Assembly: GCA_964373675.1 (NCBI GenBank)
Contig: CAYJVO010000002.1
Coordinates: 3,054-67,053 of the forward strand
Source: an uncultured Candidatus Saccharibacteria bacterium
GTDB taxonomy: Bacteria; Patescibacteriota; Minisyncoccia; UBA6257; WO2-44-18
Length of the DNA stretch: 64,000 nucleotides
Direction of reading: 5' to 3'
Shown here piece by piece: positions 2,770 to 56,924 of the stretch. The notes beneath the pieces are model-generated. The model did no database searches, had not been told where the DNA came from, and saw nothing but the letters and a program-made list of their open reading frames with translations. The first letter of the stretch is position 1, and each line of letters opens with the position of its first letter. The position numbers and the translations under genes were made by a program.

Positions 2770-3768
2770 TGAGGGCTTTTTGTTAACGTTCAGAGACAAA
2801 AAATCGTTAGTATCATAACGAGGAATCAAAAAAGCGGAATCTTTGGGAGTAATGGAACGCCGCTCAATAGTGACCGCGTACCGGAAACCGATCTCATCCA
2901 GAAGATTAGCCGTTTCGGGGGCGTAACGGCCGTGGGGATAAGAAAAAACATCCACCCCCTTCCCCAAAAGTTCCTCCAAAATCTTTTTAGAAGTTTGCAG
3001 ATCGGCGCGCGCCTTTTCTACCGGTAATACCTCAAACGAATTATGACCATGCGAATGACTCCCGATCACCATACCCTCCGCATCAAGCTTGCGCACCTGG
3101 TCGGAGCCCATAAATAAAGCTCGGCATAAAACCTCTTCATCCAAACCGAATTTTTCAAAGTAAAAATGTAAAAACTGCTCCCTGGTAACCGAAGGCAAAG
3201 TAATCATCGCCTCTTTAAAATTATTTGTCAGCCTATCGCCGTGCTTCCGGCGATTATCAATGCTGCGATCTTTCGGAATCACGTAGGCTCCTTGCGACCA
3301 ACTGTTGAAAAGGTCAATCAGTTCGCTCGGCGACGAACGGGAAAAAAGGATGTGAAGCTTATGGGTTAAAGGCAGCTTGCCGCCGAAAATAGAAGTAATG
3401 ACAAAAAAAGTCCCGGTCGCCTTATATTTTTTTAAGATCGGCGCGGCATTTTCGTAGTTATCCCTGAATCCGTCGTCAAAGGTAAACGCGCAAAACTTAC
3501 CGGAACTTCCTTCTCGCGCGGCCTGGTATACCTCGGGCACCGAAACTATGCGGAAACGCTCGACTAACCATTGCACCTGCCGATCAAACTCCTTAATAGA
3601 GCATGGGTGAATCCCGCCCCAAGCCGGATCAGGATCCCGTACGTAGTGATAAGTAACGATGATGTAATTTTCTTTTTCCATAATGATCTTAGACGCCTGT
3701 AATCTGCGCCAAAAAATCCACGCTGCGTTTGTAGGATAATCCGTCGGTATACCGGACATGCGAAGCAA
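2764..3768 (-). CDS. polysaccharide deacetylase (NodB/CE4 family)
   Basis: FTFDDGFRDNYENAAPILKKYKATGTFFV matches the NodB motif. The true start may be the internal Met at 3681 (MEKENYIIV), which would remove the overlap with the upstream gene. Confidence 0.75.
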   Translation of the reverse strand: MLRMSGIPTDYPTNAAWIFWRRLQASKIIMEKENYIIVTYHYVRDPDPAWGGIHPCSIKEFDRQVQWLVERFRIVSVPEVYQAAREGSSGKFCAFTFDDGFRDNYENAAPILKKYKATGTFFVITSIFGGKLPLTHKLHILFSRSSPSELIDLFNSWSQGAYVIPKDRSIDNRRKHGDRLTNNFKEAMITLPSVTREQFLHFYFEKFGLDEEVLCRALFMGSDQVRKLDAEGMVIGSHSHGHNSFEVLPVEKARADLQTSKKILEELLGKGVDVFSYPHGRYAPETANLLDEIGFRYAVTIERRSITPKDSAFLIPRYDTNDFLSLNVNKKPSS

Positions 3769-5104
3769 CGATGCGCCGCCGCGCCTCGCCGTCCAGTTTT
3801 GGATTATCCAGATACAGGTTGATCAATTTCGGCAGATCTTCATCAGTTTTAGCCAAGCGCACTGCACCACTCTCGTAAATCGGTCGGTAATGGTTGAATT
3901 GGTATGCTAAGGCAAAACGATCAATATAGCCGATATTAATAATCGGTTTGTCAAAAATACAGGCCTCAATGGAAATGGTAGAAGCATAATTAATATTCAA
4001 ATCAGTATACTTTAAAGAATATTTCAAATTCAATAAATCGCCGTAATTCATTTCTACTTTCCCGTCGGTATATTTACCAGCCGGATCAATGCAAAGATCC
4101 GAAGTATTTAAAAATTCTTTGTAATGGTCGTAAACATCTAGCGGGTGGATACGAATGAATAAATTAACGTAAGGAATTATTTTATCTTCTCGCAAGCGGA
4201 TAAGATCGCGGATGTATTTTTTTTGAAATGGATACGCTTTAGTAACCGTGGTATGGAAAATTGTTTTATAAGCCGGATTTAGTCCTTTGGATTTTAAAAA
4301 CTCCTCCCTTGAGGGTATGTGATTCGAAATATCCGAATTCCATTCAAATAATTCTAAACCATCTTTGTTTTCGGATAATTCGGATGTATTAGAATTTTTT
4401 GAATCGCTTCTATCAAAGTAAGGATCAAAACGTGGCGTCCCGGAAACAAAAATCTTATCCGGCAGATAACGATGAATCTCAAGAACCTCTTTTTTAATAA
4501 TATCGTTCCAGGCAATCAAATAATCAGTTTTCCGGATATGTTTGGCATTGGTTGTCGGATTATCCCAAGAAGCGTTAATCGCAACAGTTGGAATCTTTAG
4601 CTTTTTAGCCGATAAAATAATTTCTGCCTCCCAGCTATCAAATCCCGGCGTTGCCGTAATCACCAAGGCTGGCTGATATTTCCCCGCTAATTCCAAAAAC
4701 CGCCGCGATCTTGGCAATAAGATTTCCTCCAGCCAAGTAAAAAAATCAGCGGTTAAAAACGGCGAAAAAGGCTTGCCGAAAAACCTCAAAATGCGCCGCT
4801 TCCAATTATTTTTATAATTCGGCCGCTTATACCAATGACGAATAGAGGCTAGATAATCAAACTCATTTACTAAGCTGATCCGTAAAAATTTAAAGAATTC
4901 CCAGAATTTCGGACTAGCCGCCCTCAGCTTTTCGTAAAAAACATTGGATGACTGCAGATAATTGCGCTGTTTCGCGATCTCGGCATCAATCATCGGAGTC
5001 AATACCACCGCACGGTATTTGCTTGAAAGGTATTCAATATATTTTGTCCGCAATAGGTCGCTGGTGGCAATATAATTGGGAAGCGCTAAAAAAACAGTTC
5101 GCAT
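3689..5104 (-). CDS. TagF-like CDP-glycerol glycerophosphotransferase family protein; carries an in-frame 89-bp repeat insertion
   Basis: 471 aa with a GTPRFD motif typical of the TagB/TagF family. An SD (GGAG) is supplied by the R1 repeat immediately upstream. Residues NSNTSELSENKDGLELFEWNSD are encoded by the MITE-like repeat at 4319-4407. Confidence 0.6.
   Translation of the reverse strand: MRTVFLALPNYIATSDLLRTKYIEYLSSKYRAVVLTPMIDAEIAKQRNYLQSSNVFYEKLRAASPKFWEFFKFLRISLVNEFDYLASIRHWYKRPNYKNNWKRRILRFFGKPFSPFLTADFFTWLEEILLPRSRRFLELAGKYQPALVITATPGFDSWEAEIILSAKKLKIPTVAINASWDNPTTNAKHIRKTDYLIAWNDIIKKEVLEIHRYLPDKIFVSGTPRFDPYFDRSDSKNSNTSELSENKDGLELFEWNSDISNHIPSREEFLKSKGLNPAYKTIFHTTVTKAYPFQKKYIRDLIRLREDKIIPYVNLFIRIHPLDVYDHYKEFLNTSDLCIDPAGKYTDGKVEMNYGDLLNLKYSLKYTDLNINYASTISIEACIFDKPIINIGYIDRFALAYQFNHYRPIYESGAVRLAKTDEDLPKLINLYLDNPKLDGEARRRIVASHVRYTDGLSYKRSVDFLAQITGV
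4319..4407. mobile_element. 89-bp MITE-like repeat, copy 1, in-frame inside the TagF-like CDS
   Basis: About 90% nucleotide identity to 10674-10762. The termini are inverted: GTGATTCGAAAT...TTTTTTGAATCGC. Confidence 0.65.
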
Positions 5105-5105
5105 A

Positions 5106-5215
5106 CTAAATTTTATTCTCCTTCGCCGAAAACCCCGGGCGGCCTACTCCGCCGAGTCTGACTCGGCTACGAAGGCTGGATAAGCCCGCGGGATGAAGGC
5201 GAGGAGCTTCATTTT
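5106..5215 (-). repeat. R1 structured repeat copy (supplies SD for the TagF-like gene and extends the dehydrogenase ORF)
   Basis: Reverse complement equals GAAGCTCCTCGCCTTCATCCCGCGGGCTTATCCAGCCTTCGTAGCCGAGTCAGACTCGGCGGAGTAGGCCGCCCGGGGTTTTCGGCGAAGGAGAATAAA, and ends 7 nt before the ATG at 5104. Confidence 0.7.
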
Positions 5216-6179
5216 CTAAATTCTTAATTGCCTTAACCACTAACTCGCTAATATAAACTTGAGTGCGTTCAGTGGCTTCCTCGGTAGAGCCGCCCAAATG
5301 CGGCAAAATGATCAAATTCTGATTTTTCCTGGCGTATTCCACCAACGGATTATTAATCAAATGGGCGCCGTCCGGGGATTCATCTGCCAACGTATCAATT
5401 CCCGCTCCGGCAATCCATCCTTTTTTTAAAGCCTCCAGCAATGCGACCTCATCAGTAATTTCCCCGCGGGCGGTGTTGATAAAAACGGCGGTTGGCTTCA
5501 TGAGTTTAAAATGTTCCTGTTTAAGCATTTTATAAGTAGAATCATTGTAAACAGCGTGAAGAGAAACAACATCGGATAATTTTAAAAGATTAGGCAGATC
5601 CGCCTTAACAGCTCCGTATTTTTTCATCTCGGCGGCGCCGACAAAAGGATCATAAGCCAACGCCCTCATTCCAAAGGCCGCGCTGTAGCCAGCCACCAGC
5701 CGTCCCAGCCGGCCAAAACCAATCAAACCGATAGTTTTTCCAGAAAGTTCCCGGCCGCTGTATTTAGCCCGATCCCATTCGCCTTTCTTAATCGCTTCAA
5801 ACCCCCAAGGAATTTTTCGCAACAGCGCCAAAATTAAAGCCATTGTTTCCTCAGCGGTAGAAGGAGTTTTGTGAAGAGCGGGAGCATCAGCTTTTATATT
5901 AACTATCTTAATGCCGCGCCGCCTGCACTCATCCAAATCCAAATACCTCAACTGGGTGGTGCGGGAACCGATCAGCTTTAATCTGCGCGCCCGATCCAAA
6001 ATAGGCTTATCAAACTTAACCTCCAAACCGGTCACTACCACATCGGCTTTTGACAAATTTCTAAAAAACTCCGCCCGCGATCCAAAATTAATCACCCGGC
6101 CGGATCGAGCAAGAATTTTTTTAGCTTTTGCGCTGAATTCTTTTTCCGCAATTAAAATATTAATTGATTTTTGAGCCAT
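5106..6179 (-). CDS. D-isomer-specific 2-hydroxyacid dehydrogenase (NAD-binding)
   Basis: GLIGFGRLGRLVAGY Rossmann motif and the typical family length. The last ~35 codons (RLHPAGLSSLRSRVRLGGVGRPGFSAKENKI) are read through the R1 repeat at 5106-5215, so the native C-terminus is probably earlier. Confidence 0.75.
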   Translation of the reverse strand: MAQKSINILIAEKEFSAKAKKILARSGRVINFGSRAEFFRNLSKADVVVTGLEVKFDKPILDRARRLKLIGSRTTQLRYLDLDECRRRGIKIVNIKADAPALHKTPSTAEETMALILALLRKIPWGFEAIKKGEWDRAKYSGRELSGKTIGLIGFGRLGRLVAGYSAAFGMRALAYDPFVGAAEMKKYGAVKADLPNLLKLSDVVSLHAVYNDSTYKMLKQEHFKLMKPTAVFINTARGEITDEVALLEALKKGWIAGAGIDTLADESPDGAHLINNPLVEYARKNQNLIILPHLGGSTEEATERTQVYISELVVKAIKNLENEAPRLHPAGLSSLRSRVRLGGVGRPGFSAKENKI

Positions 6180-6885: not shown

Positions 6886-6921
6886 GGTAAAATTAATAAC
6901 ATAAAATAACAGCCAAGTAAA

Positions 6922-7134
6922 CCCGCACATAACTAGGACTGCAACAGCCTCGCTTCTCTGAAAAAAACGCCATCATTCACAATTTTTTATCAGCAAATCT
7001 TCGTAGCAATAGCAGTTTAACGCGTTAAACGCTTTGACGCGTCAAAGCACTATCCCATGGGATAGTGCTAGGAAATAACCCCACACAGCTTTGTCTCAGG
7101 CATTGAAGAAAGCGGAGTCCTAGTTATGTGCGGG
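6922..7134. mobile_element. inverted-repeat cassette, family A copy 1 (TIR CCCGCACATAACTAGGACT / AGTCCTAGTTATGTGCGGG)
   Basis: 19-bp perfect terminal inverted repeats at 6922-6940 and 7116-7134. The interior contains the perfect palindromes GCTTTGACGCGTCAAAGC and AGCACTATCCCATGGGATAGTGCT. The interior plus right arm is repeated at 45014-45174. Confidence 0.6.
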
Positions 7135-7206
7135 GCAAGCCCCGAGAAAATTAATAACTATATTAATAATTCCTAAATTAACTTAATAACCACTCAATAA
7201 CTACCA

Positions 7207-7297: not shown

Positions 7298-7303
7298 AAT
7301 AAA

Positions 7304-7343
7304 TCTTTCCGTTATAACCGCCATGGCGGTTATAACGGAAAGA
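7304..7343. repeat. 40-bp perfect palindrome TCTTTCCGTTATAACCGCC-ATGG-CGGTTATAACGGAAAGA
   Basis: Exact reverse-complement symmetry centred on CCATGG. Confidence 0.85.
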
Positions 7344-7346
7344 TTT

Positions 7347-7404
7347 CCGAAAATCCGAAAAAAATGAATCTCCAAAAAAATGAACCTCCGAAAATGAAAC
7401 TCCC
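7347..7404. repeat. tandem repeats of about 15 nt (AAAAATGAAYCTCC), 3-4 copies
   Basis: Direct reading of 7347-7404 shows the repeated unit. Confidence 0.6.
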
Positions 7405-7424
7405 CGGGCTTACCCTCGGCCTCG

Positions 7425-7608
7425 CTGTAAGCGGAGCCGAGTCTGACTCGGCGGAGCCCCACGCCTTTGGCAGGGCAATGCTCGCCCGTGGCAGGGCGTG
7501 ACGCCCGGGATATTCTTTGAATGAAGCTCCACGGCCTTATCTAGCCTTCGTAGCCGAGTCAGACTCGGCGGAGTAGGCCGCCCGGGGTTTTCGGCGAAGG
7601 AGAATAAA
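7425..7608 (+). repeat. R1 structured repeat family (one partial and one full copy) with GCCGAGTCWGACTCGGC hairpin
   Basis: CTTCGTAGCCGAGTCAGACTCGGCGGAGTAGGCCGCCCGGGGTTTTCGGCGAAGGAGAATAAA at 7546-7608 also occurs at 5106-5170 (reverse complement) and 56953-57024. A partial copy lies at 7425-7460. The local context is GC-rich. Confidence 0.7.
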
Positions 7609-7611
7609 CAA

Positions 7612-7640
7612 TAAAAAAAGCCGCGGTTTGATCGCGGCTG
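7612..7640 (-). terminator. rho-independent terminator of the sqd1-like gene
   Basis: On the minus strand, CAGCCGCG-ATCAAAC-CGCGGCTG is followed by TTTTTTT directly after the TAA stop. Confidence 0.7.
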
Positions 7641-10145: not shown

Positions 10146-10871
10146 TTATTTTTGCAACACAAAAAAATAGTGATACTTATTCAATACCGGTTTTATTTCG
10201 CGCAAAATACGAAAATGCGAACCTAAAATTCGCCTGACCTTACCTAATCGGTAGTTCCAATAATCAATCTCCCAATAATGCTGACCAGAAACCTTGATGC
10301 CGCCGAACTTCAACGGAATACGCAGGAAAAAATCCAGAAAGGATTTTCTAAAAATAGTGCGTACGCCTGGAAATTTGAAAACCCATTCCCAACCAGTGGA
10401 TTTATAAGGCAAAGAAATCAAGGCGTAGCGCTTAGTCACGCGCCGTAATTCCGCCAGCGCCTTAGAAACCTCTTCAAACGGAATATGCTCTAAAACTTCA
10501 AAAGCCGTAACCACGTCAAATCCGCTTTCTTTAAATGGCAATGAGCGTATGTCTGCCACCACATCCGGATTTAAATTCTTATCAAAATCGCAGGTCGTCA
10601 AATTATAGCCCAGCTTTTTCATATAGTCCGAGAAAAACCCGCTGCCCTTCCCAATCTCCAAAATTTTAAATTTGCGATTCAAAACATCCGAATTCCATTC
10701 GAATGATTCTAAACCATCTTTGTTTTTGGATAATTCTAATGTATTCGAATTTTTTGAATCGCATTCCGCAATCTCTTGCACAAGACTAACTTGATAATAA
10801 TAAGAAATAAACCGCTCGAGGTCATCATACTTACGCCGAAAATAATGTTCTTTTTCAACTTGTGGGTTCAT
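10146..10871 (-). CDS. class I SAM-dependent methyltransferase carrying the in-frame 89-bp repeat
   Basis: ILEIGKGSGFFSDYMKKLGYNLTTCDFD is MTase motif I. Residues DSKNSNTLELSKNKDGLESFEWNSD are encoded by the repeat at 10674-10762. Confidence 0.6.
   Translation of the reverse strand: MNPQVEKEHYFRRKYDDLERFISYYYQVSLVQEIAECDSKNSNTLELSKNKDGLESFEWNSDVLNRKFKILEIGKGSGFFSDYMKKLGYNLTTCDFDKNLNPDVVADIRSLPFKESGFDVVTAFEVLEHIPFEEVSKALAELRRVTKRYALISLPYKSTGWEWVFKFPGVRTIFRKSFLDFFLRIPLKFGGIKVSGQHYWEIDYWNYRLGKVRRILGSHFRILREIKPVLNKYHYFFVLQK
10674..10762. mobile_element. 89-bp MITE-like repeat, copy 2, in-frame inside the methyltransferase CDS
   Basis: 11-bp terminal inverted repeats GCGATTCAAAA / TTTTGAATCGC. 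The host proteins are unrelated, but the repeat translates to nearly the same peptide in both. Confidence 0.65.
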
Positions 10872-19139: not shown

Positions 19140-20239
19140 GAATTTAATGATAGCATTTTATTGTAAATAACGTTGTATAGCTGGGCAGTTTTCCCCCAAC
19201 TCATTGAACGCGCAAAAGAAATCGAATTTTTCGACATATCAAACCTCAAATCGGGATTAGATAATATTTTCTCCATAGCGGCTGAAGCGCTCTTTGGGTT
19301 CTGCGGACTTACCAAAATGCCGTTCTTCCCGTCCCTAACCGCGTCTTCCGCGCTAGTTTCTTTAGTAGTAATCACCGGCAATCCGGCGGCCGCCGCCTCC
19401 AAGAAAACCAGTCCAAAACCTTCAATGTCTTTGTTAACATCCTGCGGCATTAATATAAAAAGCTCGGCGTTTTTATAAACCGATATCAATTCTTCCTCCG
19501 ATAAATTTTCTAAAAAAACAACCCGATCTTGATACTTGATACTTGATACTTGCCGCTGAAGCGCTTCGTACTCCGGCCCTTTCCCGACAATCACGTATTT
19601 CAAACCTGGAAACTTCTTGGCTACTTCCGCGAATGCCGCGATTGAATATTCGTATCCTTTTCGTTGCTTTAATGTTCCAACGCTTAATATATAAGGTTTC
19701 AATTTCTGGACTTCCGATGTCCCAATATTGACGTCAATGGTTTGGACATCGGAAGTCCCTGATATTGATTCGAATTTTGTAAAATCAACGCCGTGATTAA
19801 TAACAGAGATTTCCAAATCCGGCAAAAATTTCTGGATTTCTCTTTTGGTATTATTACTAACCGCTATTACCCTAAACGCTCTTTTATACGCCCATTTCAT
19901 AATCGGCCGTCTCCACCAGCTGTAAAACGGCTTAACCGCCCCGGTGCCAATGCCGGTTATAATTAGTTTTTTTCTTGATCCTAAAGATACTATGGCCGCA
20001 ATCACGCCATATGGCCAGCCATCCAAGGCATGAATAATATCGCAATATTTAAAGGCTCGACGAATACAGAAATAGAAAAAAGGTAATTGCCAACATTTTT
20101 TCGGCAAACCGCTATCATGAGTTAAAACTTCATATTGAAAATCTGGAACAATCTTTTCAAGAGCGCTGATTAGCGAATGATAAAACCGCCCGGCGCCAGT
20201 TTTATCGCTTAAATCATGATTAAGATAACAAATTTTCAT
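19136..20239 (-). CDS. GT4-family glycosyltransferase
   Basis: YVIVGKGPEYEAL...FGLVFLEAAAAGLPVITT is the GT4 C-domain signature. A heptamer-repeat-encoded loop (QVSSIKYQ) is present. Confidence 0.8.
   Translation of the reverse strand: MKICYLNHDLSDKTGAGRFYHSLISALEKIVPDFQYEVLTHDSGLPKKCWQLPFFYFCIRRAFKYCDIIHALDGWPYGVIAAIVSLGSRKKLIITGIGTGAVKPFYSWWRRPIMKWAYKRAFRVIAVSNNTKREIQKFLPDLEISVINHGVDFTKFESISGTSDVQTIDVNIGTSEVQKLKPYILSVGTLKQRKGYEYSIAAFAEVAKKFPGLKYVIVGKGPEYEALQRQVSSIKYQDRVVFLENLSEEELISVYKNAELFILMPQDVNKDIEGFGLVFLEAAAAGLPVITTKETSAEDAVRDGKNGILVSPQNPKSASAAMEKILSNPDLRFDMSKNSISFARSMSWGKTAQLYNVIYNKMLSLNS
19528..19552. repeat. heptamer tandem array (CTTGATA x3.5) inside GT4 CDS
   Basis: CTTGATACTTGATACTTGATACTTG. 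It is in-frame and encodes QVSSIKYQ. Confidence 0.8.
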
Positions 20240-21252: not shown

Positions 21253-21933
21253 TTACTTCTTTCTTAACACATAATAAATATAGCGGCCAAACCATTGATT
21301 TGCCGGAAGGATTTTTTTAAGCAGTTTATTCAAAAATAAAAATTTAAATTCTGATTTTGAATATTCGGTTGTCACTAAATCAAAATACTTCAAAAAAGTC
21401 TTTTTAAAAATTGCGCGGGTAAAAAATGTAATGTGATTATCGCCTTCCAAAAAATGATAAATATCGCCGCGCCAGAAAAAGAGCAGCCGATTCAAAATAT
21501 GAAATGGGTTTGGAGTGGAAATAATAAATATCCCGCCCGATTTTAAAACCCGAAACACTTCCCGTCCGAAAAAATAAGGATTCTCTAGGTGCTCAACCAG
21601 TTGGGAAGCTATTACTCCGTCAAAATGACTATCCGGCCACGGCAATTTATCCAAGCATAAATCAGCTTTAGAAAATTCGAATTTCTTGGCCGGCTCAGAA
21701 CGATAATCATCAATGTCCGCGCCAGTCAAATTCTGATAACCGGCTTCCGAAAACTGCGAAAGCAGGGAGCCATCGGCTGATCCGCAGTCTAAAATCGGCC
21801 GCGAACGATCGGGCAAATATTTTTCCGCTAAACCTAAAATCTTGCCGCTGCGAATATCCCAACTGGAACGCTGCTGCAGATGCAATAGCTCATTTTGTCT
21901 ATTTTTTATTTCATCTGGATCAAGGTATTTCAT
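21253..21933 (-). CDS. class I SAM-dependent methyltransferase (paralog of 20517-21242)
   Basis: ILDCGSADGSLL is motif I. The conserved C-terminal block (LENP...GG...I.S, NHIT...AIFKKT.LKYF.LV..EY) is shared with the neighbour. The longest ORF starts MCGM... inside the cassette arm, so the Met at 21933 is preferred. Confidence 0.7.
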   Translation of the reverse strand: MKYLDPDEIKNRQNELLHLQQRSSWDIRSGKILGLAEKYLPDRSRPILDCGSADGSLLSQFSEAGYQNLTGADIDDYRSEPAKKFEFSKADLCLDKLPWPDSHFDGVIASQLVEHLENPYFFGREVFRVLKSGGIFIISTPNPFHILNRLLFFWRGDIYHFLEGDNHITFFTRAIFKKTFLKYFDLVTTEYSKSEFKFLFLNKLLKKILPANQWFGRYIYYVLRKK

Positions 21934-22042
21934 CCCGCACATAACTAAGACTGCAGCAACGCTGCAATCCTATTTTAACTTTTTAACTTTTTTCACCATA
22001 ATATATCTAATTTTTAAAATAGTCTTAGTTATGTATGGGATG
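21931..22042. mobile_element. inverted-repeat cassette, family A copy 2 (CATCCCGCACATAACTAAGACT ... AGTCTTAGTTATGTATGGGATG)
   Basis: 22-bp terminal inverted repeats with a 68-bp AT-rich interior that has promoter-like hexamers. Both termini present an outward ATG. The left one is the MTase start codon. Confidence 0.65.
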
Positions 22043-23383
22043 CAATATAAGATTGGCCAAGCGTTCTCCTGATTTGCCATCCAACCATACACAGGCATTT
22101 TTAGCAATTGCACTATTTCCTTCTCTGCCAATAGAAGGATTGGCTAAATAATATCTTGCCAACTCAACTAATTCCTGCGGACTGCGGGCAATTTTAAGCG
22201 AGCCCTGATTAATAACTGCTTGCTGATGTTCATATTCATAATACCGTCTTAAACTGTCCCAAAAGGGCTTTGGTTTTTCTCCGTCAAGGCCAATTAGCAC
22301 GATGGGTTTATTGAAAATCGCGGCGTCCAAAACAATGCTTGAGGGGCTTGTGACTGCCACATCGCTATGGTAGATCAGATCGGCCAGATGTTCATCATCG
22401 CCGCGGCGTAGTAAGGATTCTTCCAATCGGGCCGCGCTTTTAGGAATGTCAAAAACCATATACGGCGGCGGAGTAAAATCGCTTATTTCCGCTCCTCCAA
22501 AAATCGGAAAGCGCACCACTACCTGTTCTCCAACGCCGGCTAAAATCTTCAATAAATATTTATTAAAAGAAGTGTCGCCGGTCCAAATATCACTCGGCGG
22601 AGTCACAAAAATCAATTTCCGATTCGGATCTAATTTCAGTTTTTCAAAAAATTCTTTGCGAGGCGTTCGTTTTCCTAAAATGTAATGATCGTAGTGAGGA
22701 TACCCCACCACTGCTGTCACATCAGCAGGCACACTGTGATATTTAACAGCCCAATCTTTAATCTGATTATTCTGCACCGCTAAGATATCTGGTAAGGTAC
22801 GCAGCAATCCCTTAGTTGTCATGGCGTCCCAAGAACGACTCATCGCAATGCTTTTAATACCTTTTCTTCTAGATTCTCTGACTAAATAAGTGTCACTGTA
22901 CTCCTGAACTCGCAAATCCTGAATGTCAGTAGCAAAAACTAACTGCGGCTGGTATTTGGCAAACAGGGCGTCATAGCCGCCAGCCGGTACTAACCAATAA
23001 TCAAGCCAGCGAAAAAATTTTCTGACTAATCCAAAACTGCCCAACCAGCTCAGAAAAGAAGTGAACCAATAGCGCAAATAATTGCGATCTTTCCCTAACT
23101 GCACCAGCTTATGAATTTTTTTGCTGCGATTATGCAGTAAATTCCACGATAAAACGTGAAATAAGAGATTGATTTTAGAGAGAGGACGAAACGGCACTTC
23201 CTCCACAATTATATTGCCTCCCCCAAACTCTTTTTGAAAAAATTCTCCCTTTTTCTCTGGTACTAAAAGTACAATTCTAAGATTTGGCTGACTTTTTAAC
23301 AAAGCAAAGGCGTCGGTCTCCAGTATATTACGGACAACCAGATTGAAAAAACCGGTAAAGAAAATTGTTTTGGGAGGATTCAT
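22025..23383 (-). CDS. TagF-like/capsule-biosynthesis glycerophospho- or glycosyl-transferase family protein
   Basis: 452 aa, paralogous in architecture to 3689-5104 (FNKPIVLIG vs FDKPIINIG C-terminal block). Confidence 0.5.
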   Translation of the reverse strand: MNPPKTIFFTGFFNLVVRNILETDAFALLKSQPNLRIVLLVPEKKGEFFQKEFGGGNIIVEEVPFRPLSKINLLFHVLSWNLLHNRSKKIHKLVQLGKDRNYLRYWFTSFLSWLGSFGLVRKFFRWLDYWLVPAGGYDALFAKYQPQLVFATDIQDLRVQEYSDTYLVRESRRKGIKSIAMSRSWDAMTTKGLLRTLPDILAVQNNQIKDWAVKYHSVPADVTAVVGYPHYDHYILGKRTPRKEFFEKLKLDPNRKLIFVTPPSDIWTGDTSFNKYLLKILAGVGEQVVVRFPIFGGAEISDFTPPPYMVFDIPKSAARLEESLLRRGDDEHLADLIYHSDVAVTSPSSIVLDAAIFNKPIVLIGLDGEKPKPFWDSLRRYYEYEHQQAVINQGSLKIARSPQELVELARYYLANPSIGREGNSAIAKNACVWLDGKSGERLANLILHPIHN

Positions 23384-25836: not shown

Positions 25837-26975
25837 GATTTTTTAATTGCATCTAAATACTGCTGCTTAGTTGGCCAATTTTTTAAAAGGTTATTCTGCC
25901 CATCAATAACTCTCCTTCGTTCCGCGGGATTGGCTATTAACTCTTCTAAAACCTCGATGAGCCGCTTTTTGTCGCCTACCGGCACCACTCGGCCAATAGC
26001 CGCACCGACATCGGTCATAACCACCGGCAGACCGGCCGCCGCCGCCTCAACCGCCGCCAGACCGTAACCTTCGTAGTTGGAGGTCAATAAAAATAAATCC
26101 GCGGTCTTGTAATAAGAAATCAGATCATCCGTCCAGGGCTCAATAATTGCGTTATTTTGCAATTTTAAATTTTCAATTTTAAATTTTAAATTTTGGCGTT
26201 CCGGACCATCGCCAACGATCAATAACAAAGGATTTCCGACGCTTGATGCCTGACGCTTGACGCGATTAAACGCCTCGATTGCTAATCCGATATTTTTCTC
26301 TCGCGACAATCGAGAGGCCACGAGAATAATAAAATTGTGGCTCGGATATTTTCTGTGAAGATCGATCTTGATTGGAGATTTTTTTATTTTTTTAACGTCA
26401 ACAAAAATTGGCCGCACTTCAATTTTGGACTCGGGATAATCAATTTGCGAAATAACGGATTTTTTAATCCGATCACTAACTACCCGCAGGCGGTCGGCCT
26501 TTTTAATTAAAAACTTCGCCAGCAAAACCCGGATTTTATTCTTTAATGACTCCTTCGCGAAATACGGGCTTAAAAAATCCGTATGCGCTTGAAGCTCTAA
26601 CGGAATTTTGAATTTCTTTTTCAGAGGATAGCCCACTAAGCCGGTCTCAAAAGGATCCTGCGCCGTTACTAGATAATCCGAATGCTTCAAGCTTTTATCC
26701 GAATTATCCGAACTCAAAATATATTTGGCGATTTTGTAGGCATCCCAAAAATAAAAAGGCTTGAGGCGCGTATTGGTGGAATAAATCCAAGCGTTCGCAG
26801 TTATTGCTTTTTTGTTCGGGGCATTCGGATAGCGGTTCGTATTATTCGGATTATCTTTTGTGTAAACTATGATGTGCAGCTCCTCGACAAGTTGAGCGTA
26901 CTCAATCATCCTCTGCCGAACAGCCGAGTTTTCTTTAAAAATATTTGAATCTGCTGATAACATTAAAAGCCGCAT
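25803..26975 (-). CDS. GT4-family glycosyltransferase
   Basis: LLLIVGDGPERQNL...GYGLAAVEAAAAGLPVVMTDVGA is the GT4 signature. Confidence 0.75.
   Translation of the reverse strand: MRLLMLSADSNIFKENSAVRQRMIEYAQLVEELHIIVYTKDNPNNTNRYPNAPNKKAITANAWIYSTNTRLKPFYFWDAYKIAKYILSSDNSDKSLKHSDYLVTAQDPFETGLVGYPLKKKFKIPLELQAHTDFLSPYFAKESLKNKIRVLLAKFLIKKADRLRVVSDRIKKSVISQIDYPESKIEVRPIFVDVKKIKKSPIKIDLHRKYPSHNFIILVASRLSREKNIGLAIEAFNRVKRQASSVGNPLLLIVGDGPERQNLKFKIENLKLQNNAIIEPWTDDLISYYKTADLFLLTSNYEGYGLAAVEAAAAGLPVVMTDVGAAIGRVVPVGDKKRLIEVLEELIANPAERRRVIDGQNNLLKNWPTKQQYLDAIKKSWQDCYSSPKK
26161..26194. repeat. heptamer tandem array (AATTTTA x5) inside GT4 CDS
   Basis: AATTTTAAATTTTCAATTTTAAATTTTAAATTTTG. It encodes LKFKIENLKLQN. 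Confidence 0.85.
26240..26264. repeat. degenerate heptamer array (GCTTGAT/GCCTGAC/GCTTGAC) inside GT4 CDS
   Basis: GCTTGATGCCTGACGCTTGACGCG. Confidence 0.6.
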
Positions 26976-28179: not shown

Positions 28180-30477
28180 TCAATAATTGAGTGTGTTTAA
28201 AATTTCTACTAGCTTTGTCATACAATTTCCTATTGAAAATTGTTTGGCCTTTTCTTTGGCATTTCTTACTATCTTTTCTCTAAAATTCTTATCACTGCCA
28301 ATTTTTCTAATAGCGGCCAGAATTTGTTCTTTGCGGTTGGGCTCAACCAAAATCCCTTCTTTGCCGTCATCAATGATTTCGGCTAAATTGCCGATCTTGG
28401 TAGTTATAACCGGCAGGCCGGCATTCATTGCTTCCACCACCTGAAATGAAAAACTCTCAAAAGAAGTATTTAAGACAAAAACCGTCACGCTATGCAATAA
28501 TTCCAATAATTTTTCTCGTGGAACGGCATCCAAGAAATCAACTTTATTTTTGACACCTGACACCTGACACTTGACACCGAGCGCTTCACGCTCTGGCCCG
28601 TCTCCCACAATCACCAATTTCCAGTCCGGCAAATCCCGCATTAAGTCAATCAAAACATCGAACCCCTTCCACGGCACCAGACGGCCAGCCGATAGAATGG
28701 TTTTGAGTTGATGAGTTGATGAGTTGATGAGTTTTTTGGATGGCGGATTATCTAGCTGTATGCCGTTGTAGATGACTTTCACTTTTTCCGGATTTTTTAT
28801 CCAGCCGCCGACTAGTTTTTGGAAGTACTGGCTGGGAGTGATAATTATCTTGGCCTGATTGGCAACAAACTTTTGCACGCTGCGCAATAATTCTGTTCGC
28901 AATCCATATCTTTTTTGCTGAAACTCATCAATAGAATCTTTAACCCCAAAACGCTGGGCCGCCTGCTCCCAAGCATAATCGCCGGCAACTCTCATAATAA
29001 AGGGCTTTCTCAAAACCTTGGCTGCCAGCATTGCCGGCAATCCTACGCTGACTGGATCCTGCGAATAAACAATGTCATTCCTCCGCGCCCTTAACAGACA
29101 TTTGAAAAAATAAATCAAATGGCGAATGCCAATCGGCCAGCGCCTGACAACCCGAAAGGGCAGAACCGCGATGCTCATTCCGTGCTTCGGCAATTCTTTT
29201 TCCAAAAGAGCGGTGTAAGTTGCCGGACCGCCGATCTCCGGAGGATAAATTCCGGTAGCTACTAAAAGTCGTGTAATTGGTAATTTGTAATTGGTAATTA
29301 GAGCTTGGAAAATATTTTTAATTTTTGATGCAATTTTGTCCCAGGAATAATTTTCTAAAACTAGCTTTCTTCCATTTTCAGCTATTTTGTTTCTTAGAAT
29401 ATCATTTTCCATCAAACCTTTTATCTTTCCAGCCACATCCTTAAAGTCATCAACTTGACAAAAAAGGCCCGTCTCGCCATCCTTTAAGAAATCAGAAATT
29501 CCCCCAACTGGAGTTCCGATAATTGGCAAGCCGGCCGCCATGGCTTCCAAAAAAGAATTGCCTAATCCTTCGGAACGAGATGGTCTTACAAAAATATCTG
29601 CCCCAGCCAAATAATTCGGTATCTTGTCCGGATCAACGTGGCCCAGAAACTCAATTTTGTCGGCTACTCCTAAATCCGAGGCTAGCTTTTTTAACTTTTC
29701 TTCATCTGGTCCAGAACCTAAAACCTGACACCTGATACTTGACACCTGATACTTCTTTAATTCTGCTACAGTTCGAATTAACGTATCAATGCCATTTTTA
29801 TGAACTAACCGCGAAGTTGTTATAAGGGTATAGGGTTTAGCGTTTAGGGTTTTAGATTTTTCACTATACGCCATACGCTTAACGCTAAACGCTTCAACAT
29901 TCACGCCATTCGGCACTACTTCAATCGGACACCTGGCTCCGTGCCGTCGCGCAAAATCCATCAGATAATTGCTGATTACTTGAATATAATCGGCCTTTTT
30001 GAATAAAAACCGCCACAAAGGATAAAAAATCCCCACCCGCCTCAAAATATGCGATTCGCTATCCCCCTCCTGCAGCGTAAGAAGAAGCGGGATGGACGGA
30101 TGCCGCAACTTGAAAAAAAGCGCGGCCATGCCGCCATAAGAAGCCATTATTGCCCAAATTAACTTAAAGGACTTTTTTTTGTGTTCTTGCTCTGCCGTTC
30201 GCCAAGCGCGAAAAGCGTACAAAATTTTTTTAAAAAAGTGGCCGTAATAATCGTGCTGGTTGAGGCCGCCGCTCCCGATCCTAATTACCTCAACATTGCT
30301 TATCTTTTCCCGCGAAAGCCAATGCCGGTCAAATTTGTAGGTAAAACAAAAAAAATTATCATCCGGCAGCCGATCAGTAATTTCTTTAACTGCCACTTCC
30401 GCGCCTCCCACGAAAGGAAAATAAGCGGTGCTGAAAATAACGATTTTAGGACTCATAAATCTTTTCTGTTTCTTCAA
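28180..30477 (-). CDS. tandem double GT4 glycosyltransferase (two GT-B units, 765 aa)
   Basis: Two GT4 signatures: VLGSGPDEEKL...GLGNSFLEAMAAGLPIIGT and VIVGDGPEREAL...SFQVVEAMNAGLPVITT. The gene contains five heptamer/octamer arrays in loop positions. Confidence 0.75.
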   Translation of the reverse strand: MKKQKRFMSPKIVIFSTAYFPFVGGAEVAVKEITDRLPDDNFFCFTYKFDRHWLSREKISNVEVIRIGSGGLNQHDYYGHFFKKILYAFRAWRTAEQEHKKKSFKLIWAIMASYGGMAALFFKLRHPSIPLLLTLQEGDSESHILRRVGIFYPLWRFLFKKADYIQVISNYLMDFARRHGARCPIEVVPNGVNVEAFSVKRMAYSEKSKTLNAKPYTLITTSRLVHKNGIDTLIRTVAELKKYQVSSIRCQVLGSGPDEEKLKKLASDLGVADKIEFLGHVDPDKIPNYLAGADIFVRPSRSEGLGNSFLEAMAAGLPIIGTPVGGISDFLKDGETGLFCQVDDFKDVAGKIKGLMENDILRNKIAENGRKLVLENYSWDKIASKIKNIFQALITNYKLPITRLLVATGIYPPEIGGPATYTALLEKELPKHGMSIAVLPFRVVRRWPIGIRHLIYFFKCLLRARRNDIVYSQDPVSVGLPAMLAAKVLRKPFIMRVAGDYAWEQAAQRFGVKDSIDEFQQKRYGLRTELLRSVQKFVANQAKIIITPSQYFQKLVGGWIKNPEKVKVIYNGIQLDNPPSKKLINSSTHQLKTILSAGRLVPWKGFDVLIDLMRDLPDWKLVIVGDGPEREALGVKCQVSGVKNKVDFLDAVPREKLLELLHSVTVFVLNTSFESFSFQVVEAMNAGLPVITTKIGNLAEIIDDGKEGILVEPNRKEQILAAIRKIGSDKNFREKIVRNAKEKAKQFSIGNCMTKLVEILNTLNY
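28551..28578. repeat. heptamer tandem array (TGACACC x4) inside double-GT4 CDS
   Basis: TGACACCTGACACCTGACACTTGACACC. It encodes GVKCQVSGVK. Confidence 0.85.
28704..28733. repeat. octamer tandem array (TGAGTTGA x3.5) inside double-GT4 CDS
   Basis: TGAGTTGATGAGTTGATGAGTTGATGAGTT. It encodes LINSSTHQLK. Confidence 0.8.
29274..29301. repeat. heptamer tandem array (TAATTGG x4) inside double-GT4 CDS
   Basis: TAATTGGTAATTTGTAATTGGTAATTAG. Confidence 0.8.
29724..29754. repeat. heptamer tandem array (CCTGAYA x4.4) inside double-GT4 CDS
   Basis: CCTGACACCTGATACTTGACACCTGATACTT. It encodes KYQVSSIRCQV. Confidence 0.85.
29832..29858. repeat. heptamer tandem array (AGGGTTT x4) inside double-GT4 CDS
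   Basis: AGGGTTTAGCGTTTAGGGTTTTAGATT. Confidence 0.7.
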
Positions 30478-37083: not shown

Positions 37084-37165
37084 ATCCGTATCAGGTATCA
37101 AGTGTCAAGAATTGAAATTTGCTAATGTTATAAAAAAATGTAAACCTGATACTTGAAACATGAAA
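37084..37165. promoter_or_regulatory. divergent intergenic region: inverted heptamer arrays (GTATCAGGTATCAAGTGTCAAG / CCTGATACTTGAAACATGAAACC) flanking a 33-bp AT-rich core
   Basis: The two arrays are in opposite orientation around AATTGAAATTTGCTAATGTTATAAAAAAATGTA, which carries TTGAAA and TATAAA hexamers, between the regulator and galU. Confidence 0.5.
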
Positions 37166-37984
37166 CCCGCAACTAAAGTATCAACTGCCGTTCTACCGGT
37201 TGCCGGACTGGGAACCAGATTAATGCCTTTAACACTCCACCAGCCAAAAGCCATGGTCGGTATTATTGATCGGCCGGTTATTCATTATGTAATTGACGAG
37301 GTGTTGACTGCTGGCATCAAAAACATTGTTATCGTGATCGGGCCCAAACAAAAAGAATTTAAAAAATATATTCAATATCTCAAAAAATGCGATCCGGAAT
37401 GGCAAAAATTGAAAATTCATTTTGATTTTGCAATCCAAAAGATGCCCCGCGGAAACGGAGAGGCGATTTTATGCGCAGAAAGATTTATTAAAAAACAACC
37501 CTTCTTGCTTTGTTTCGGCGATGAGATTTTAGCAGCTAAAGAATCGCCGCTCAAAACCATGCTTCAATTATTTTATAAAACCAATCTCCCCGCCCTAATC
37601 GTGGAACCGGTTCCTAAAAAACTGATTCCTCAATACGGGATAGTGAAAATCAAAGATGGCGAAATTTTAGACATTGTGGAGAAGCCAAAAATTAAAGAAG
37701 CTCCCTCAAATCTGGCCATTATCGGTCGTTATATCATTACGCCGGAAATCCTGCCTTTTATCAAAAAATTGGCTGCTCAAACGCCGCTAGACCAAGAAAT
37801 ATATTTAGCAGACGCCCTTCGGCTCTATTTAAAAAATAGTGGGCGAATTCTTGGCTGGAGATTTACCGGACAAAGATTTGACGCTGGTTCCAAGCTCGGC
37901 ATCCTTAAAGCGCAAGCTTATTTTGGTATCCATCATAAAAAGCTTGGCAAAGAATTTAGAAAATTTCTTAAACGGAGTTTATGA
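37160..37984 (+). CDS. galU: UTP--glucose-1-phosphate uridylyltransferase
   Basis: LPVAGLGTRLMPLT...PKAMVGIIDRPVIHYVIDE is the GalU N-terminal signature. 274 aa. Confidence 0.8.
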   Translation: MKPATKVSTAVLPVAGLGTRLMPLTLHQPKAMVGIIDRPVIHYVIDEVLTAGIKNIVIVIGPKQKEFKKYIQYLKKCDPEWQKLKIHFDFAIQKMPRGNGEAILCAERFIKKQPFLLCFGDEILAAKESPLKTMLQLFYKTNLPALIVEPVPKKLIPQYGIVKIKDGEILDIVEKPKIKEAPSNLAIIGRYIITPEILPFIKKLAAQTPLDQEIYLADALRLYLKNSGRILGWRFTGQRFDAGSKLGILKAQAYFGIHHKKLGKEFRKFLKRSL

Positions 37985-42888: not shown

Positions 42889-43371
42889 ATGCAATTATTG
42901 TTTAACAATTCCCTTGGCGCCAAACTAACCCCTGATGATGTCATCGGCGAAATAATCAAATTCATGAACGCTGATCCTCATCGCTGTTATAAAGTCATCA
43001 TCGGAACTGATTCGGAGCGTTCCGCTGACAACACCGCCGATTTTGTAACGGCAATTGTCATTCACCGCTTAGGAAATGGCGGGCGATACTTTTGGCGACG
43101 GATTGAACCAAAAACCAAATATCACACCTTAAGGGGCCGCATCACTGGAGAAGTTTTGATGTCTTTGGACATTGCCCGGGAATTACTTCAGGCTATGAAA
43201 AATTACCAAGTTCCGAAATTTGATTTTGAAATTCATGTGGATGTTGGGGAAAACGGCGCGACTAAAACAATGATTCAGGAACTAGTCGGCATGATTCGGG
43301 CTAATAATTTTGAAGCCAAAACCAAACCCGAAAGCTACGCCGCCAGCAAAGTCGCGGACCGCCATATTTAG
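42889..43371 (+). CDS. RNase H-like fold protein (YkuK/DUF458-like)
   Basis: 160 aa. The KVIIGTDSE strand with a catalytic-type Asp resembles the DUF458 family. Assignment is from memory of the family motif. Confidence 0.35.
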   Translation: MQLLFNNSLGAKLTPDDVIGEIIKFMNADPHRCYKVIIGTDSERSADNTADFVTAIVIHRLGNGGRYFWRRIEPKTKYHTLRGRITGEVLMSLDIARELLQAMKNYQVPKFDFEIHVDVGENGATKTMIQELVGMIRANNFEAKTKPESYAASKVADRHI

Positions 43372-43398
43372 TTTCAAGTTTCAGGTGTCAGGTATCAA
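43369..43398. repeat. heptamer array (reverse orientation; AGTTTCAGGTGTCAGGTATCAAG) 5' of four-helix-bundle gene
   Basis: Reverse complement is CTTGATACCTGACACCTGAAACT. Confidence 0.75.
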
Positions 43399-43402
43399 GT
43401 AA

Positions 43403-43759
43403 ATGGAAAAGGGTTATAAAAAATTGATGGCCTACCGCGAAGGTCACAAATTAGTTCTGCAAACTTATCTTGCAACTAGTAAGTTTCCTAAGTCAGAATT
43501 ATTCGGACTTGTTTCTCAAATGCGTAGGGCGGCGGTGTCTGTGGTGGCAAACATCTTAGAAGGCCAGGCCAGAATAAGTAAAAAGGAATTTAAAAATTTC
43601 ATCTCTATCACTAATGGATCCCTTGTTGAATTGGAATATTATCTTGAACTATCACGAGAATTGAATTACATTAACAGGAACGATTATGAGGAAGTAGAAA
43701 AGCAAAGAGCTCTTACTGGCTCTTTATTGGGTGGATTACTTCGTTACCTTAAATCTTAA
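43403..43759 (+). CDS. four-helix-bundle protein (23S rRNA intervening-sequence protein family; Avd-like)
   Basis: 118 aa. YREGHKLVLQTY...LVSQMRRAAVSVVANILEG...NGSLVELEYYLELS matches the TIGR02436-type four-helix-bundle family. Confidence 0.7.
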   Translation: MEKGYKKLMAYREGHKLVLQTYLATSKFPKSELFGLVSQMRRAAVSVVANILEGQARISKKEFKNFISITNGSLVELEYYLELSRELNYINRNDYEEVEKQRALTGSLLGGLLRYLKS

Positions 43760-43830
43760 CTTGACACCTGACACCTGATACCTGATACCTGACACATAAC
43801 ACCTGACACCTGATACATGATACATGACAC
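43759..43830. repeat. heptamer array, about 10 units (CTTGACA CCTGACA CCTGATA ... CATGACA), 3' of four-helix-bundle gene and overlapping start of next ORF
   Basis: Direct reading of 43759-43830. This is the longest array in the window, in the opposite orientation to 43369-43398. Confidence 0.85.
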
Positions 43831-44386
43831 TTTAGTAATTGATATTGAAACCAAAAATACCTTCGCCGAAGTCGGCGGTCAAGAAAATGTCAAAAAGTTA
43901 GATGCCTCTTTTGTGGGCGTCTATTCGTATAATCAAAACAAGTACCTGTCATTTTTTGAAAATCAATTTGGCGAACTTAACAAGTTTTTAAAAACTGCCG
44001 GATTAATAATTGGCTTTAGTATTAACCGCTTTGACATTCCGGTTTTAGAAAAATATTTAGACTTTAATATTTGGTCCATTCCCCGTCTAGATCTTTTAGA
44101 AGAAATTGAAATTGGTTTTGGCAATCGGATTAGTTTGGATGTGCTGGCGAAAACTAATTTAGGCATCGGCAAAACCCACCACGGCCTAGAAGCGATCAAA
44201 TTTTATAAAGAGCGAAATTGGAAAGAGCTGGAAAGCTACTGCCTTAATGACGTGAAAATCACCAAGGAACTTTACGAACTCGCCAAAAAACAAAAGCACC
44301 TCTCCATCCCCGACCGCACCACCGGCGTTTTAACAAAGGTGAACTTTAACTTTCCCGAAATCATCTTCCCGCAAACGCTTTTATAA
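43817..44386 (+). CDS. DEDDy-type 3'-5' exonuclease domain protein
   Basis: LVIDIETKN is Exo I (D-x-E), and YCLNDVKITKELYE is the Exo III Y-x3-D. 189 aa. Confidence 0.5.
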   Translation: MIHDTLVIDIETKNTFAEVGGQENVKKLDASFVGVYSYNQNKYLSFFENQFGELNKFLKTAGLIIGFSINRFDIPVLEKYLDFNIWSIPRLDLLEEIEIGFGNRISLDVLAKTNLGIGKTHHGLEAIKFYKERNWKELESYCLNDVKITKELYELAKKQKHLSIPDRTTGVLTKVNFNFPEIIFPQTLL

Positions 44387-45013: not shown

Positions 45014-45174
45014 CTTCCACAATTTTTTATCAGCAAATCTTCGTAGCAATAGCAGTTTAACGCGTTAAACGCTTTGACGCGTCAAAGCACTATCCCATGG
45101 AATAGTGTTAGGAAATAACCCCACACAGCTTTGTCTCGGGCATTAAAGAAAACAAAGTCTTAGTTATGTGCGGG
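45014..45174. mobile_element. partial copy of family A cassette (interior plus right arm AGTCTTAGTTATGTGCGGG)
   Basis: About 95% identical to 6975-7134. It is flanked by a 23-bp direct repeat GCAAGCCCCCACGCCTAATAAGC (44989-45011 and 45175-45197) and followed by a 16-bp-stem hairpin. Confidence 0.6.
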
Positions 45175-45226
45175 GCAAGCCCCCACGCCTAATAAGCACC
45201 TCTTTTATTAGGTGTGGGGGCAAGCC

Positions 45227-56727: not shown

Positions 56728-56924
56728 ATATAAATTAAAATCTAAATTACAAAATCCAAATAACAAAACTAGTAATCACTTCTGCCGGATTTCCACCTAT
56801 ACAATACAACTGTTCAATGCGACTCGCAACATTAACACATTCCGCATCGCGTTCAGTTCATGTCATTCGGGTTGTATATTTAATGTTCGTATCATTCGGA
56901 TATAAGTTCCCGTTATTCGGATTA

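Follow-up and report, generated by a model that had tools for sequence, protein, structure and literature searches.

The DNA analysed here is a 64,000-nt stretch of contig CAYJVO010000002.1 (the window), with a GC content of about 43%. Because the best named relatives of its ClpB protein are Patescibacteria (Paceibacterota, Harrisonbacteria, Parcubacteria and "Patescibacteria group" metagenome-assembled genomes [MAGs], at 71-76% identity), the window can be assigned to a chromosome of the candidate phyla radiation (CPR). Within it, repeat finding, direct reading and three-way alignment identify three copies of a GC-rich unit, here termed R1. Copy 1 (5117-5212, minus strand) is full length, at 96 nt, and lies between the body of a 2-hydroxyacid dehydrogenase open reading frame (ORF; 5106-6179, minus strand) and a TagF-like gene (3689-5104), in the sense orientation with respect to this operon. 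Copy 2 (7521-7603, plus strand) is reduced to 83 nt by a 13-nt deletion near its 5' end, while copy 3 (approximately 56928-57018, plus strand) diverges upstream of 56938, where it adjoins another repeat, and has its central hairpin swapped for GTAGCTGAAGCTAC. Copies 2 and 3 are both antisense to all of their neighbours and have no gene downstream on their own strand. The limits given here were refined by comparison with empty sites; repeat finding had placed the three copies at 5111-5197 (minus), 7529-7608 (plus) and 56938-57024 (plus).

The copies are 88-96% identical to one another over 80-87 nt, and R1 sub-motifs of 16-23 nt have exactly three occurrences each in the window, where dinucleotide shuffles would lead one to expect 0-0.34. 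The consensus that had been put forward in the first-pass annotation of this DNA is present, as are its two hairpin variants and nested complementarity. Direct reading also reveals a degenerate R1-like 5' half copy (7394-7460, plus strand; ATGAAACTCC...GGA-GCCGAGTCTGACTCGGC-GGAG), the different 3' part of which extends to about 7520, and an nhmmer profile built from the R1 copies matches this half copy at 7393-7456 (E=2.4e-4). Assemblies commonly break at multi-copy repeats, and the usual signature of such a break is shown by a Logan assembly made independently from this organism (L054), which is identical to the window as far as 27 nt into copy 3 and ends there.

Empty sites, target motif and the copy 1 junction

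R1-free counterparts were found in relatives for two of the three R1 sites, and it is these empty sites that identify R1 as an insertion. A syntenic contig (L001) contains the same series of genes (epimerase_2, epimerase, cytidylyltransferase, dehydrogenase, TagF-like and deacetylase) without R1, and its dehydrogenase stop codon lies 8 nt before the next ATG (AGAAAATAGAATTTCGTATG). The corresponding junction in the window reads AGAAA[ATGAAGCTCC...GGCGAAGGAGA]ATAAAATTTAGTATG and, once the 96 nt of copy 1 are removed, aligns to L001 without gaps and with 20/23 identity across the junction. The counterpart of the copy 3 site (L053) is composed of an NlpC/P60 gene, a small ORF, a terminator (GCCCCC...GGGGGC ACTTTTTAT), about 55 nt and a tRNA-His gene, with no R1. 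In the window, the native intrinsic terminator of the small ORF (57027-57053, minus strand) lies outside R1, and its T-tract (ACTTTTAT) runs straight into copy 3, of which it is the insertion point. Copy 2 is located just past the T-tract (TTGTTTAT) of the bidirectional terminator of an epimerase gene (7619-7639), in a spacer that measures 710 bp in the window versus 27 bp in L001.

On the opposite strand, all three copies read TTTAT|TCTCCTTCGCC, so that the 3' flank of R1 is ATAAA; the bases preceding the three junctions on that strand are AAATTTTAT, TTGTTTAT and CACTTTTAT. Since T(T/C)TAT is already present in both empty sites, it belongs to the target and not to the element, and at each of the three insertion points, all of them AT-rich, a TTTAT pentanucleotide adjoins the copy (n = 3). 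At the far end of R1, copies 1 and 2 have ...GCTTCAT, as against ...GCACAT in copy 3. With the junction ambiguous by AT/AAT, the empty sites fit either no target duplication or one of 2-3 bp.

The insertion of copy 1 is in frame and free of stop codons, and the dehydrogenase is therefore translated through R1, from which it takes its last 32-34 or so codons (EAPRLHPAGLSSLRSRVRLGGVGRPGFSAKEN...), to end at a TAG located 1 nt before the TagF-like ATG. The C-terminal tail that had been proposed for this protein is confirmed, with 34 residues gained (357 aa versus 323 aa). The roughly 118 other homologues listed are mostly 300-330 aa long (maximum ≤344) and cover about 88-90% of the window protein; the alignment to the closest of them (P0002, 82% identity, encoded on L001) ends at residue 321 of 357, and an exact look-up of the window dehydrogenase returned no record. 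It had also been proposed that R1 supplies the Shine-Dalgarno sequence (SD) of the TagF-like gene from 12 nt upstream. An AGGAG that forms part of the R1 terminal stem, at the 3' end of the element, is indeed present ahead of this gene (5118-5122, minus strand), but it lies 13 nt upstream of the ATG (5104), which is a long spacing for an SD, and it is at most a putative one. In the L001 relative, the gene that follows the dehydrogenase has no SD. Given that the stop codon lies 1 nt before the ATG and AGGAG at 13 nt, translational coupling may suffice for expression of the TagF-like gene, and such coupling is likely to be the native arrangement of L001, kept in the window. The simplest reading is that an insertion could survive at this junction only if it was in frame, contained no stop codon and preserved the coupling, and both the dehydrogenase tail and the SD-like motif look like by-products of it.

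The core hairpin of R1 and its occurrence in CPR genomes

Whether taken as RNA or as DNA, copy 1 forms a single long imperfect hairpin (z of about -3 to -3.9 against shuffled sequences), whereas copies 2 and 3 do not fold clearly better than shuffles (z = -2.7 and -0.7, respectively). In the consensus fold, an outer stem (CCC.GCGGGC / GCCCGGGG) is followed by a GCCU/AGGC stem, a C-G pair and, at the centre, a 3x3 internal loop (GUA/GGA) that encloses an inner stem of 7-8 bp (GCCGAGUC/GACUCGGC). This central part constitutes a core hairpin with an 8-bp stem, C-GNA-GCCGAGTC-W-GACTCGGC-GNA-G, which is located at 5151-5167 (minus strand) in copy 1 (GCCGAGTCAGACTCGGC, in a CGTA...GGAG frame), at 7553-7569 (plus strand) in copy 2 and at 7436-7452 (plus strand) in the half copy, there in a CGGA...GGAG frame. 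Copy 3 presents instead a variant palindrome with a 7-bp stem in the same register (56965-56978, plus strand; GAA-GTAGCT-TC-AGCTAC-GAA on the other strand), whose inner hairpin differs by seven substitutions from that of copies 1 and 2 and includes two double compensatory changes and one G-U pair. The consensus fold of R1 keeps 25 pairs overall, of which two carry double changes in copy 3. Hence, the absence of compensatory changes that the first-pass annotation had named, together with a lack of transcription, as grounds against a structured RNA is not what is found here, and compensatory change among the three copies fits constraint at the DNA level and at the RNA level alike.

R1 itself appears to be confined to this lineage. 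An exact search with an invariant 25-mer from its 3' half retrieved nothing from GTDB species genomes, JGI metagenomes or IMG/VR, a six-frame peptide query against 5.8 billion proteins recovered only the window's own dehydrogenase, and the nearest relatives sampled (L001 and L055-L057, about 75 kb) contain neither R1 nor its hairpin. Such a patchy, lineage-restricted distribution is typical of mobile repeats. The core hairpin, on the other hand, is widespread, being found again in about 45 contigs of low GC content, most of them from the CPR. As the half copy has only GAGCCGAGTCTGACTCGGCGGAG in common with R1, we searched for GCCGAGTCNGACTCGGCGGAG, which has 12 exact loci in GTDB genomes and 39 in JGI metagenomes, the latter mostly at 35-48% GC. 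Four of the GTDB loci belong to named CPR members (Spechtbacterales, Woesebacteria, Spechtbacteria and Roizmanbacteria) and three to MAGs with 35-45% GC; the remainder lie in high-GC genomes, in which chance or coding matches are to be expected. No match was obtained in viral contigs, which argues against a viral origin of the hairpin.

Removal of duplicates leaves 46 distinct instances, 28 of which display the frame C-G(N)A-stem-loop-stem-G(N)A-G. All framed instances form the closing pair and 79% of them the next pair, as GC, CG, AT or GT; their most frequent heads are CGAAG (13), CGTAG (6) and CGGAG (6), R1 being of the CGTAG type. Relaxed matches in one contig (L014) provide compensatory stem variants (GTCGAGTCTAACTCGAC, GCCGATTCTGAATCGGC and GCCAAGTCTGACTTGGC), and single changes in the stem are G-T compatible on the framed strand only. 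The density of hairpins varies, with six in 12.6 kb of L014 and three canonical ones plus the copy 3 variant palindrome in the 64 kb of the window, and so does their arrangement, which includes an inverted pair (L019) and tandem arrays (L014, L041). Some instances lie in frame inside coding sequences, namely those of GyrB (L004:6425-6455), DnaK (L040:1510-1534), RadA (L014:5392) and a serpin-like protein (L014:6817-6854), where they encode SAESDSA (the usual form, found in GyrB and DnaK) or FADSESA in linker or tail regions. In five instances located inside ORFs of other CPR contigs, it is the template strand and not the mRNA that carries the G-N-A frame. In two different organisms, the hairpin shares sequence with a tRNA-Ser gene, overlapping its final 7 nt (CTCCGCC) (hairpin L015:795-815 with tRNA-Ser 809-897; hairpin L027:3135-3155 with tRNA-Ser 3149-3236), so that the acceptor end of the tRNA gene doubles as the GGAG frame of the hairpin.

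The same module is also part of a recurrent conserved element of about 105 nt, here termed E2, which coincides precisely with junctions between genes and is present in many CPR-like metagenome contigs (L021:8252-8400 and 10449-10560; also L005, L016, L017, L018, L026, L030, L032 and L043). Its layout is TCAT|AGCAATCTCAAGGAAAC-[variable, covarying hairpin]-AGGAATTGAGCTTGGTATGTCATCCTCC..GGGAAACC-GCCGAGTCWGACTCGGC-GGAGGATGTCAT|, and in L021 the ATGA of E2 twice provides the TGA stop codon of the upstream gene. E2 has no Rfam match, and full-text literature searches found no description of the hairpin sequence or of CPR repeats. The framed hairpin thus appears to be an undescribed module present across the CPR. 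It is tempting to postulate, albeit tentatively, that it represents a CPR-wide system of hairpin-guided mobile modules, in which a dedicated single-stranded DNA (ssDNA) enzyme or an RNA-binding protein would recognise the tandem G-A internal loop and of which R1 would be one local product. If so, the same unit of about 30 nt would have been built into unrelated composites (R1, E2 on its ATGA junctions and the tandem arrays) and would continually remodel gene junctions and protein linkers in minimal genomes.

Nature of R1 and competing explanations

Among described systems, the closest parallels are found in repetitive extragenic palindromes (REPs), defined as imperfect palindromes of 20-40 nt with a GC-rich stem of 6-13 bp and a short loop (PMC3733652); the core hairpin, with its 8-bp stem and minimal loop, falls within this definition. 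GTAG-tagged REPs and their composites, the bacterial interspersed mosaic elements (BIMEs), are thought to be mobilised by the REP-associated tyrosine transposase (RAYT, or TnpA-REP; PMC3733652, PMC2817692, PMC8266576). The GTAG REPs described by Di Nocera et al. present complementary stem changes and G-T pairs in their subfamilies, occur as singles, inverted pairs and tandems, and sit after genes or terminators and now and then inside replication or repair genes (PMC3733652). In like manner, the CPR hairpins are GC-rich palindromes preceded by an unpaired head of the GTAG type (GTAG, GAAG or GGAG), form subfamilies with complementary stem changes and G-T pairs, and are found singly, as an inverted pair (L019) or in tandem (L014, L041), after genes and terminators and inside gyrB and radA. 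Unlike REPs, however, their head varies at position 2 (T/A/G), with GAAG and GGAG falling outside the degeneracy listed for REPs (GYAG/GTRG...; PMC3733652), and a matching G-N-A on the 3' side generates a symmetric internal loop closed by C-G. R1, moreover, is a 96-nt composite with unique arms and not a bare REP, and it does not reproduce the regular alternation of REPs seen in a BIME, since it contains one clear module and at best a weak second one in the same orientation (GTA-GGCCG...CGGC-GAA). REPs reach high copy numbers per genome, often above 100; in the 64 kb of this genome covered here, R1 has three copies. No RAYT was found among the ORFs scanned. Full-text searches located no report of REPs in the CPR.

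A second parallel is provided by the Rickettsia palindromic elements (RPEs; reviewed in PMC10969869), which are likewise hairpin repeats (about 100-150 nt) of a small genome that insert in frame and add a peptide without destroying the protein. The likeness is one of behaviour only, as there is no sequence similarity and the host belongs to the Patescibacteria and not to Rickettsia. Of the three R1 copies, a single one lies within a gene, at the very 3' end of it, and the bare hairpin module displays RPE-type behaviour more clearly than R1 does. As for the palindrome-associated elements of the IS200/IS605 type, which move by single-strand HUH Y1 transposition, R1 resembles them in lying beside a fixed TTTAT that is already present in the empty sites, in lacking a clear target duplication or tip-to-tip inverted repeats, in having a far end (...TTCAT) that resembles the target, and in the strand specificity and G-T tolerance of its hairpins. 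It departs from them in that no TnpA or TnpB was found nearby, in that its main hairpin is central (approximately positions 42-58 of 96) and not subterminal at both ends, and in its mixed orientation with respect to the likely direction of replication (2:1), although three copies are few for a rule.

Of the three options raised in the first-pass annotation (the terminus of a larger element, a REP-like unit or a small structured RNA), the REP-like unit fits best. With a probability of roughly 0.6, we regard R1 as a lineage-restricted, non-autonomous mobile repeat of the REP/BIME-like or RPE-like kind; in itself, R1 is an ordinary type of object, a small selfish repeat. R1 spans about 96 nt, encodes nothing of its own and folds as one long imperfect hairpin centred on a GTAG-headed GC-rich palindrome, with a symmetric G-N-A/G-N-A frame, a module common to many unrelated CPR composite repeats. 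Its copies landed beside native TTTAT motifs, on two occasions just after an intrinsic terminator and on one in the gap of 8 nt that separates two coupled genes, where an in-frame and stop-free insertion endowed the dehydrogenase with a 34-residue tail ending 1 nt before the next ATG. While the repeat, its insertion, the target motif, the sharing of the module and the stem-preserving changes are observed, we infer that R1 spread by means of a trans-acting enzyme able to read the hairpin on ssDNA, for instance a RAYT or IS200/IS605 type of Y1/HUH transposase, with the SD and the tail taken as by-products and not as the reason for the existence of R1.

Several observations weigh against this interpretation. 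With only three copies, the ends of R1, its target duplication (AT or AAT being possible) and its copy number per genome are uncertain, and the relatives that provide the empty sites, at 82% and 46% protein identity, do not belong to the same population. The compensatory changes would equally fit a role at the RNA level, and there is no doubt that copy 1 is transcribed. The 20 window ORFs scanned with Pfam yielded no transposase of any kind, PF01797-type proteins (RAYT, Y1 HUH) included, and a crude regular expression for the HUH motif, applied to the small sample formed by all fetched loci (about 450 kb), gave no convincing match. The lack of a transposase, the degenerate head, the 3' G-N-A and the 96-nt composite structure are the reasons why R1 is not filed here as either a REP or a MITE (miniature inverted-repeat transposable element). 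A template or variable repeat of a diversity-generating retroelement can be discarded, for the differences between copies are not adenine-specific and the ORFs scanned include no reverse transcriptase.

A MITE in the classical sense, that is, a unit with terminal inverted repeats (CTCCTCGCC ... GGCGAAGGAG), a 2-3 bp AT/AAT duplication and a DDE transposase encoded elsewhere, is an unlikely yet still the least improbable of the alternatives. R1 has the typical size of such elements, is absent from orthologous sites as they are, is flanked by AAT at either end in copies 1 and 2, and pairs CTCCTCGCC with GGCGAAGGAG in the outermost stem of copy 1. It also shares size, intergenic location and effects on neighbour genes with bacterial MITEs such as Correia/NEMIS, ERIC and RUP; MITEs affect their neighbours, for example, through co-transcription or because they contribute a promoter, SD sequence or terminator. 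However, those families possess defined terminal inverted repeats and target duplications (TA in the case of Correia), and the inverted repeats of R1 are imperfect and not clearly terminal: in copy 1 they start 4 nt off the left tip, short of the element ends (GAAG versus CTCC), in copy 2 the left repeat is mostly lost through the deletion, and in copy 3 the left end is different. The common ATAAA flank, being native in the empty sites, suggests a target motif and not a duplication, and no DDE transposase was found among the ORFs tested.

Somewhat less probable is that R1 functions as a structured RNA, either as a cis-regulatory leader or as a small RNA, in which a CCUUCG...CGAAGG stem would sequester or present AGGAG or the hairpin would bind a protein. 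The fold of copy 1, far below that of shuffles (z = -3.9), the 25 pairs of the consensus with their two double changes, the covariation of the hairpin module across genomes and the presence of AGGAG upstream of a gene that lacks an SD in a relative all speak for it. Against this, the folds of copies 2 and 3 are no better than shuffles, both copies are antisense to their neighbours with no gene downstream to act upon, relatives lack R1 at the same junctions, and the framed strand is the template in the five hairpins inside ORFs mentioned above. The small structured RNA suggested earlier finds no backing in Rfam either: covariance models, run on the three R1 sites at gathering thresholds and at E<=10, identified no family, and both there and on 12 related loci (Rfam 15) they returned only tRNAs and chance-level matches. 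Riboswitch-like sequestration of an SD was rejected since there is no gene for two of the three copies to control, and RNase P, tmRNA and other housekeeping RNAs were discarded for the GC-rich patches because they gave no Rfam signal. With one copy sense and two antisense to their neighbours, orientation argues against a designed regulatory role. Slightly more doubtful still is the notion that R1 and its hairpin, like certain REPs, are sites maintained by the host (stabilisers of mRNA 3' ends, terminator helpers, or binding sites for nucleoid or RNA-binding proteins) and spread by recombination. The placement of copies 2 and 3 directly against intrinsic terminators, the hairpins adjoining tRNA-Ser 3' ends in two genomes and the conserved G-N-A/G-N-A internal loop, which looks like a recognition motif, point in this direction, but neither copy 2 nor copy 3 has its relevant strand transcribed, close relatives are entirely devoid of R1, and in-frame copies in GyrB, DnaK and RadA are better explained by selfish spread than by a site-specific function.

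Finally, the possibility that R1 forms the att-like ends of a larger integrated element near tRNA-His, or the terminus of a longer GC-rich element as formerly suggested, is very remote and has already been largely refuted. Copies 2 and 3 form a pair of direct repeats separated by 49.4 kb, copy 3 lies 212 nt from tRNA-His and GC-rich DNA is found beside both. Nonetheless, the third copy of R1 is inverted and lies only 2.3 kb away from copy 2, no integrase was observed, the GC content across the interval is ordinary, and the region from ClpB through the glycosyltransferases has the same gene order in R1-free relatives. Gene order in the 49 kb between copies 2 and 3 is partly common to relatives without R1, and this synteny contradicts an integrative island bounded by the two copies. 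The GC-rich DNA next to copy 3 (57025-57420) corresponds to a native, zinc-finger-like gene with its own SD and terminator, syntenic in L053, and that at 7396-7545, which had been noted as anomalously GC-rich DNA adjoining copy 2, is largely the degenerate half copy of R1; the GC-rich patches are not one big element.

For the annotation of this genome, this means that the 34 residues added to the dehydrogenase and the "SD" ahead of the TagF-like gene are to be recorded as results of the insertion of a repeat and not as evolved features. CPR genomes are tiny, densely packed and usually thought to be poor in mobile DNA, and small hairpin repeats of the REP/RPE type are apparently uncatalogued in the CPR/Patescibacteria. 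The 21-nt hairpin search pattern, which already recovers dozens of loci, offers a handle on what moves such units and can be used to ask how far they shape CPR proteins and operon junctions.

Neighbouring genes and other repeats in the window

The native gene that accounts for the GC-rich neighbour of copy 3 (57111-57398, minus strand) lies outside R1 and encodes a 95-aa protein with a CxxC...H...H arrangement, preceded by a strong SD and a promoter-like site and followed by a terminator. The protein has no Pfam domain, and its one clear homologue (P0122, encoded on L053) presents 46% identity and the same CxxC-x12-H-x4-H motif; it was discarded as cargo or partner of R1 because this homologue occupies the same NlpC/P60-to-tRNA-His context without R1. 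The C-x2-C-x12-H-x4-H protein has only this homologue among 1.84 billion cluster representatives, and its gene lies downstream of an NlpC/P60 gene in every case seen; it is a conserved orphan.

Upstream of the R1 half copy, three tandem R1 5'-end motifs (ATGAATCTCC, ATGAACCTCC and ATGAAACTCC), each preceded by an A-run, are located at 7364-7403 and could be either footprints or a local tandem array. Nearby, a perfect palindrome of 46 nt (AAATCTTTCCGTTATAACCGCCATGGCGGTTATAACGGAAAGATTT, 7301-7346) has a core (CCGCCATGGCGG) that resembles the terminator found at the homologous position in L001. A second family of repeats in the window, with inverted termini CCCGCACATAACTARGACT / AGTCYTAGTTATGTGCGGG, is represented at 6916-7150, 21926-22047, 62112-62162 and 45018-45183; a 166-nt unit of this family occurs twice at 95% identity (6978-7143 and 45018-45183), and one of the termini overlaps the start of the cytidylyltransferase ORF. 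An AT-rich family, rich in CCGAAT/ATTCGG, is present at 4318-4407, 10673-10762, 26670-26856 and 56875-56928. Its 90-nt copy at 4318-4407 lies inside the TagF-like ORF, within the sole indel-rich stretch of the alignment to L001 (residues ~230-265), and another copy directly adjoins the divergent 5' end of R1 copy 3.

Two further kinds of repeat occur in the window. A GC-rich, hairpin-like unit, CCTCCTTTGCTAAAGCT(A/T)CGG(C/A)GG, is found twice (47112-47153 and 47226-47267) inside the ORF at 46630-48735, where it is read in frame as SSFAKATAGEE and SSFAKASEDEE; similar peptides (SFAKASAGKE and HFAEASRGKE) occur in L014, in an aminopeptidase and in ribosomal protein S1. Heptamer arrays (ACCTGAY / TGACACC), in turn, are located at 19527-19552, 28548-28594, 29716-29762, 37089-37169, 43371-43840 and 45502-46386, and cluster around the gene for a 23S rRNA intervening sequence protein (43403-43759, PF05635) and RNase H-like genes.

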